From NCBI RefSeq assembly GCF_045037415.1, contig NZ_CP173438.1: 64,000 bases of DNA. One strand, written 5' to 3'. Below are positions 47,075 to 47,790 of this stretch, piece after piece (position 1 is the stretch's first letter; each line of letters starts with the position of its first letter). A program made the position numbers and the translations under genes. Source of the DNA: Escherichia coli (GTDB taxonomy: Bacteria > Pseudomonadota > Gammaproteobacteria > Enterobacterales > Enterobacteriaceae). Below the pieces are notes generated by a model. The model was not told the origin of the DNA, made no database searches, and saw only the letters and a program-made list of their open reading frames with translations.

Positions 47075-47790
47075 ATGAAAATACGCAGTATCAACCACAC
47101 AGAGGATTATGTAATGACCAAAAATCATTCATTTTTAGAACAACAGATAGCTACATTTGGTGCAGCACTAAATGGGGGAAATCAACCGCAATCTGAGTAC
47201 ATAGAAGCCTTCTCAAAATCATTTAAAGGACTAGAAACACAAATTAATATTTGGGAAACCTTTATTGTCAATAGCACAAATGTTAATCAAGACGACGCAA
47301 TGCTTTTTCCTTAACCATATCAGAGCAATATCTACACTACACCCATAAATCAACCGAAATAGAACAGCTCCGCTACTTCTACATAGCACAAAAAATTGCA
47401 GACTTGTTCTGGCTGAACAACGTTGCACATAGAGGTAAAAACTCTGAAGGCTACCCAGGTCATTTTGGTTGTCGTGTAAGGCAAAGAAACAAAAAACTCG
47501 AAATTTTCTGGGTTTACAACGAGTTTAAACCTAAAAAGAATTCTGACAAATACCAGGTGATCAGCCATTACCTCCCCCGTGAGGGCAATTATCGCTATTC
47601 ACAAAGCACCTTTACCCGAGCACAAGATTGGGAAAAATCGGTGATTACTGCTGTTGAAGATGCTTTCTCAATAATCCGCAGAGCCAACTCAAATCTAATG
47701 CGGGTTAGACAACTGTGCCGTTGGAATGACACCAATCTATTCAAAATGACAGGCGATATCGACGATTTTAAGATGGATAATCCTTTATAG
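47075..47790 (+). pseudogene. hypothetical gene, possibly frameshifted (two ORFs in adjacent frames)
   Basis: ORFs 47075..47314 and 47404..47790; the second frame is open from 47287 with no ATG, overlapping the end of the first. Confidence 0.3.

Follow-up and report, generated by a model that had tools for sequence, protein, structure and literature searches.

A probable mobI pseudogene, split by a one-base deletion, in a captured fragment of an IncC-mobilizable island within the Escherichia coli selC island

Introduction

Genomic islands of the MGIVchHai6 kind are mobilized by IncC plasmids, and mobI_M is essential for this mobilization in MGIVchHai6 itself (Rivard, Colwell & Burrus 2020, mSphere, PMC7449626). 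The same study defined MobI_M as a protein of 225 aa that starts at ATG118 of the 795-bp ORF 84 (VCHC36A1_0084), placed an AcaCD-activated promoter (P84) within the first 117 bp of that ORF and mapped a minimal oriT of 49 bp directly upstream of it, >117 bp 5' of the start codon. Constructs beginning at the +304 ATG and at the +409 TTG failed to complement a mobI_M deletion, and over-expression of intact MobI_M cut pVCR94 transfer about 40-fold. Group A islands, as described there, have the order trmE/mnmE-int-HTH-DUF927-xis-mobI-rhuM-type I R-M, with a core of int-xis-86-85-ig-mobI whose integration site is the 3' terminus of trmE or of yicC, or the 5' terminus of dusA. Table S1 of that paper includes an intact E. 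coli trmE island (NCTC10962) and does not include the selC remnant described here.

MobI proteins recognize oriT and, according to the literature, bind the C-terminal MobI-binding domain of TraI, the MOBH12 relaxase of A/C plasmids. The MobI proteins of IncC/IncA plasmids (MobI_C, for example that of pVCR94) and of SXT/R391 ICEs also belong to Pfam family PF19456, and likewise serve to recognize oriT and to recruit TraI, the MOBH relaxase. On this model, an intact MobI_M would act at the oriT just upstream of its own gene, whose promoter would be turned on by the plasmid activator AcaCD, and would start transfer of the excised island together with TraI of the helper IncC plasmid. A literature search for mobI combined with selC, an unspecific query that also matched 'mobile' and 'mobilization', returned no paper on this remnant.

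Here we analyse a locus in a 64,000-nt stretch of E. coli DNA (contig NZ_CP173438.1; hereafter, the window). Our preferred reading, to which we assign a probability of about 0.93, is a frameshifted mobI_M pseudogene that lacks its promoter and oriT and lies in a captured island fragment, an ordinary decaying remnant (Table 1).

Two reading frames of one mobI gene

Two overlapping frames are open on the plus strand. ORF1 runs from ATG 47075 to TAA 47312-47314 (79 aa). The second frame, at -1 to it, has no stop from 47287 until TAG 47788-47790 (167 codons), contains no ATG until close to the C-terminus and offers no canonical start of any kind before TTG 47404. The ORF list and translations thus bear out the layout given in the original prediction, and its proposal that one gene had been split by a single-base indel between 47287 and 47314 also held: one T added to the T5 run joins the frames into a single ORF, which encodes 238 aa if read from ATG 47075 and 225 aa (678 nt) if read from ATG 47114. 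The gene had been listed there without a function. The second frame matches the MobI profile PF19456 over profile positions 4-116 of 116 (E = 4.6e-30, 104.6 bits; gathering cut-off, 26.6 bits) and belongs to the MobI family, whose function is known, that of an oriT-recognition factor of IncC-mobilized islands. Without the inserted T, no uninterrupted ORF here is colinear with full-length MobI members. An NCBIfam scan of both ORFs and their fusion found nothing relevant, only a sub-threshold match to PRK13672, and the RefSeq name 'MobI(A/C)' is not derived from any model in the library scanned.

Searching with the conceptual fusion recovered intact proteins of 223-249 aa that are 86-92% identical over 94-98% coverage (E = 1e-128 to 1e-143). 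Several of these bear the name MobI(A/C) and are from Vibrio cholerae; the sole E. coli entry is a 157-aa downstream piece. Because the fusion matches intact proteins nearly end to end at such E values, the frameshift pattern is not due to chance. The intact homologs that the original prediction had suggested looking for therefore exist and span both ORFs, and neither of the outcomes it had named as refuting, two genuinely separate small genes or no conservation, was seen: the homologs are continuous and conservation is strong. Judged by sequence comparison, both ORFs are parts of one broken mobI gene, of the MobI_M type found in MGIVchHai6-like islands mobilized by IncC plasmids.

Table 1 Features of the mobI locus and the surrounding island fragment (positions are those of the window).
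Feature	Position	Strand	Description
IS3-family remnant	46147..47087	-	orfA-like HTH ORF 46658-47035; terminal inverted repeat ~47054-47087; abuts mobI leader
Non-native 5' extension of ORF1	47075..47113	+	ATG 47075 and next four codons are IS end; 47088-47113 is native leader
MGIVchHai6-like (group A, trmE-type) island fragment, 10.5 kb	47088..57580		Bounded by IS elements inside the selC island
mobI 5' fragment	47114..47314	+	Codons 1-65 of the native frame (MTKNH...DDAMLF), followed by an aberrant Pro codon and TAA
T5 tract, 1-bp deletion site	47304..47308	+	From alignment to T6 homologs
mobI 3' fragment	47309..47790	+	-1 frame, codons 66-225 and TAG; first codon lacks its first base
MobI domain PF19456	47383..47721	+	Pfam profile match
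rhuM (Virulence_RhuM)	47848..48897	-	Conserved neighbour of mobI in MGIVchHai6-like islands
IS1 copy	57598..58365 (approximate end)	+	Terminal repeat GGTAATGGTGCCAACTTACTGAT starts at 57598; right boundary of the fragment

A one-base deletion shared by E. coli copies

Three intact DNA homologs (L003, L004 and L007) carry T6 at the site where the window has T5 (ATG CTT TTT TCx TTA in the homologs, ATG CTT TTT CCT TAA in the window), and L003 equals the repaired window sequence without differences over 48 nt around the site. By these alignments, the lesion is the loss of 1 bp from a T6 tract and breaks the frame after codon 65. We searched a 717-bp repaired query against 5426 complete E. coli genomes and found 71 full-length chromosomal copies (~1.3% of genomes). 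All 56 full-length copies listed of the 71 have the T5 length of 716 bp; the best match to the repaired query was 99.9%, and none of the 71 matched it at 100%. The carrier genomes were sequenced independently, and the isolates came from humans, poultry, cattle, dogs, wild birds and the environment. The frameshift is a fixed mutation common to the E. coli genome copies examined.

An error of sequencing or assembly in the homopolymer, which would leave the real gene intact and which the original prediction had wanted checked, has one point in its favour, that a T homopolymer is the classic place for indel errors. However, five T is a short run for systematic errors, the disruption by an IS element and the non-synonymous excess described below fit real decay, and the T5 version has been obtained by many laboratories from many hosts. 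Because independently sequenced copies (all 56 listed of the 71) have the T5 length, we do not regard it as a sequencing error, and the chance of an intact gene behind it is close to nil.

A regulated full-length MobI could in principle be made if ribosomes were programmed to shift to -1 at the T tract, or if transcription slipped there. A -1 slip of tRNA-Phe from TTT 47306-47308 to TTT 47305-47307 would restore the intact sequence (...AMLFSLTIS...) exactly, and the stop codon comes one codon after the slip site. Yet the features expected of a programmed site (heptamer, stimulatory structure, conservation among homologs) are missing: the zero frame contains no X XXY YYZ heptamer, no compact structure is predicted downstream (MFE -9.8 kcal/mol over 106 nt, z = -1.57) and all relatives are in frame, which indicates a derived deletion and not a conserved recoding site. 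Efficient transcriptional slippage needs runs of about 8 or more, and T5 is too short for it. With the promoter and oriT gone, a restored protein would moreover have no substrate. Regulated recoding is thus extremely unlikely; a single-tRNA -1 slip of tRNA-Phe on T-TTT (47305-47308) may yield a trace of full-length MobI, without consequence.

Start codon and loss of upstream functions

Homology to intact islands begins exactly at 47088, as seen both in the V. cholerae alignment and in blastn boundaries, and other E. coli copies of the IS3-family end match 47054-47087/8 and then stop. ATG 47075 and the four codons that follow it are therefore IS-end sequence. The native start of mobI is ATG 47114, with a Shine-Dalgarno sequence (AGAGGA, 47101-47106) in front of it; three close homologs (P0002, P0004 and P0005) begin at the equivalent codon, as does the 66-aa 'hypothetical protein' of RefSeq. 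The length of about 235 aa originally predicted from 47075 consequently shortens to 225 aa, that start being inside the IS3 terminal repeat. RefSeq annotates the IS remnant as 'IS3 family transposase' or 'helix-turn-helix domain-containing protein'.

Only 26 bp of the native leader is retained and, because no more native upstream DNA survives, the AcaCD-dependent promoter and oriT are gone. The IS3 end has taken the place of the segment within 117 bp 5' of the start, the location of P84, and no cognate oriT lies upstream of mobI, the V. cholerae island giving no other match in the window. A box-like sequence, GTGCCCAAAAAGGGCATGA, is conserved upstream of intact homologs and has no match in the whole window with up to 3 mismatches; by its position, it is a putative AcaCD box. 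A promoter scan found no sigma-70-like candidate upstream of mobI.

The published coordinates can be transferred to the window through start codons. Intact homologs have GTG at +31, ATG at +118 and ATG at +304, and at +409 they have TTG (L003, L004 and L010) or CTG (L007); in the window, +118 corresponds to ATG 47114, +304 to ATG 47300 and +409 to TTG 47404, and the 678 nt of the repaired gene equals 795 - 117. We considered P0005 as the MGIVchHai6 protein and rejected it, its contigs being metagenomic islands with different cargo, including a reverse transcriptase gene, so the link to the coordinates of PMC7449626 is made by start-codon positions. On this scale, the +304 construct begins three codons before the frameshift and the +409 construct corresponds to the 128-aa mobI CDS of RefSeq. 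Because both constructs of the MGIVchHai6 ortholog fail, we infer that neither ORF in the window would be able to supply MobI function.

That comparison bears directly on the possibility that the downstream ORF alone, starting at TTG 47404 or ATA 47317, is a functional MobI with a shortened N-terminus and that ORF1 is a separate small gene. The Pfam domain is situated wholly 3' of the frameshift, as is the region homologous to MobI_C (residues 92-215, 27% identity), and PGAP calls the downstream CDS mobI. Nevertheless, the equivalent constructs do not complement (PMC7449626), and no homolog consists of two separate genes. TTG 47404 has no Shine-Dalgarno sequence and cuts into both the Pfam domain and the conserved EQLRYxYIAQ helix, ATA is non-canonical, and a short protein would have neither a promoter-like site upstream nor its cognate oriT. 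We consider this arrangement very unlikely. ORF1 keeps a good Shine-Dalgarno sequence and ATG, and a 66-aa N-terminal peptide could arise from the broken gene if transcription reads out of the IS element.

Origin of the surrounding DNA

The window covers the E. coli selC island, between setC and tRNA-Sec (selC)/yicJ, and is nearly identical to strain 219 from 18543 onwards. The core flank at 1-17170 (ilvB-uhp-ade-nlpA-setC) is 94-97% identical to strain 219, with gaps, and 18543-64000 is 99.99-100% identical, so the same selC island occurs in divergent chromosomal backgrounds. Positions 42934-44480 and 44481-46027 form a perfect tandem duplication of 1547 bp that holds an IS110-like ISEc45 transposase gene and flanking ISEc43 (IS66) sequence. 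The unit is single-copy in strain 219 and other near-identical genomes, and the duplication could be genuine, as an IS110-type tandem, or an artefact of assembly.

From its left end, the island fragment carries mobI, rhuM, a 280-aa ORF, a 184-aa ORF, hsdR (50314-53550), hsdS, hsdM and a relB/dinJ-like gene, and the IS1 transposase on its right is annotated in the near-identical strain 219. The cargo is that of a group A island, with rhuM adjoining mobI and with hsdR, hsdS and hsdM syntenic and apparently intact. The location in selC and the survival of the right-hand cargo part only do not fit the integration sites and core of that group, and comparison across the fragment and the window found no int, xis, DUF927 gene, oriT, att site or trmE site. 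The full order trmE/mnmE-int-HTH-DUF927-xis-mobI-rhuM-type I R-M is present in L004 (V. cholerae), L007 (a Logan contig) and L008/L009 (E. coli 1585m1). By blastn, mobI-rhuM (47088-48894) shares 87-91% identity with islands from V. cholerae and from metagenomes.

Compared with MGIVchHai6, the repaired gene has the same length, start codons at the same positions and the same neighbours, rhuM and type I R-M; the protein is 86-92% identical to relatives in V. cholerae trmE islands that share the MGIVchHai6 architecture, a figure that does not refer to the MGIVchHai6 protein itself. Unlike its MGIVchHai6 counterpart, the window gene is frameshifted after codon 65 and lacks the 117-bp segment with the AcaCD promoter, the oriT and the divergent xis-86-85 operon, and it lies in the selC island instead of at a trmE site. 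The E. coli 1585m1 island (NZ_CP086391.1) shows the window's order, mobI-rhuM-...-hsdR-S-M-relB, but is complete: it has int, HTH, DUF927, xis, an intact mobI of 194 aa and res, and its two ends lie between mnmE and tnaC. The mobI-rhuM part of that island shares only 83% identity with that of the window, and its MobI has a shorter N-terminus. The segment 48878-57580, which comprises the two hypothetical ORFs, hsdR, hsdS, hsdM and the relB/dinJ-like gene, is 98.8-99.8% identical between the two. Against 1585m1 the fragment is therefore a mosaic, with mobI-rhuM at 83% beside a far closer hsdRSM-relB part, and the recombination joint is at the rhuM end, the site of an IS21 insertion in 1585m1. 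The plasmid protein MobI_C is more distant, being 27% identical over residues 92-215 only, and the N-terminal 90 residues of island-type MobI have no plasmid MobI_C counterpart in the tblastn alignment.

Cargo between mobI and hsdR varies among relatives. A reverse transcriptase gene (RVT_1, 320 aa) and three small ORFs replace rhuM in L003 and L010-L012; this gene may be retron-like or other RT-based defence cargo.

Substitution pattern and predicted structure

We counted lineage-specific substitutions at sites where the comparison lineages agree (for the window, L003 = L004 = L007). The window lineage has six non-synonymous and no synonymous changes, a small count; the three intact lineages have ratios of non-synonymous to synonymous changes of 15:16, 8:21 and 12:26 (35:63 when summed). 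Among these six, L124Q falls in the GCRVRLR motif, at a position that is Leu in 16/16 other homologs. The 6:0 pattern points to relaxed constraint.

AlphaFold modelled the repaired protein with a pLDDT of 77.7 and a pTM of 0.70. The fold comprises helices at the N-terminus, a ~45-residue helix, a sheet of three strands and, at the C-terminus, a helix of ~50 residues. Residue 66, where the frame breaks, and residue 98, the TTG start, both fall in the ~45-residue helix (residues 59-104) and, because the break is inside one modelled helix, the two ORFs would not be separate domains. Beyond this placement of the break, the fold offers no further clue to mechanism. A Foldseek search of the model against the PDB gave no match at E <= 0.001, and a PDB sequence-profile search with the MobI alignment gave nothing significant, so the MobI fold appears, from the model, to be without a solved relative.

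Discussion

Three kinds of damage account for the remnant as a mobI_M pseudogene. The contraction from T6 to T5, probably by replication slippage, shifts the frame after codon 65 and brings in the stop at TAA 47312-47314. An IS3-family element ending 26 bp 5' of the start has replaced the AcaCD-responsive promoter and oriT. The 10.5-kb fragment between IS elements has been moved into the selC island, and it carries no integrase, excisionase or att site. Survival of rhuM and the type I R-M genes, both apparently intact, is probably why the fragment persists.

Retention of the orphan mobI fragments as a decoy against IncC plasmids, and not as junk, is a further reading. If expressed by read-through, the C-terminal fragment might still attach to the MobI-binding domain of IncC TraI, or act as a competitor at the relaxosome, and so lower IncC transfer, analogous to CtiC of SGI1, and the position beside type I R-M and RhuM would fit such a role. 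We regard this as highly improbable and continue to favour a decaying pseudogene.

The literature covers the gene family, the island family and the mechanism, and RefSeq already gives the gene the name mobI. PGAP annotates the broken gene as two intact CDSs with no pseudogene flag: the 5' piece (47114-47314) as a 66-aa 'hypothetical protein' (WP_012311738.1), and the 3' piece as mobI, with 128 aa from TTG 47404 (WP_001342709.1) or 157 aa from the non-canonical ATA 47317 (WP_226091811.1). Our analysis adds that these CDSs are halves of one pseudogene that PGAP missed, and that the selC island of ~1.3% of complete E. coli genomes holds a cargo fragment that was captured from a trmE-type IncC-mobilizable island and is now immobilised.

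The locus is better annotated as a single mobI pseudogene than as a 'hypothetical protein' followed by an intact 'conjugative transfer protein MobI(A/C)'. This is of little practical value. Without such annotation, automated screens in which mobI serves as a sign of IncC-mobilizable islands would credit ~1.3% (71/5426) of complete E. coli genomes with a mobilization capacity that is unusable. More broadly, the remnant is an example of defence cargo of a trmE-type island (type I R-M and rhuM) that has become fixed in the selC island by IS-mediated capture while its mobility functions decay.
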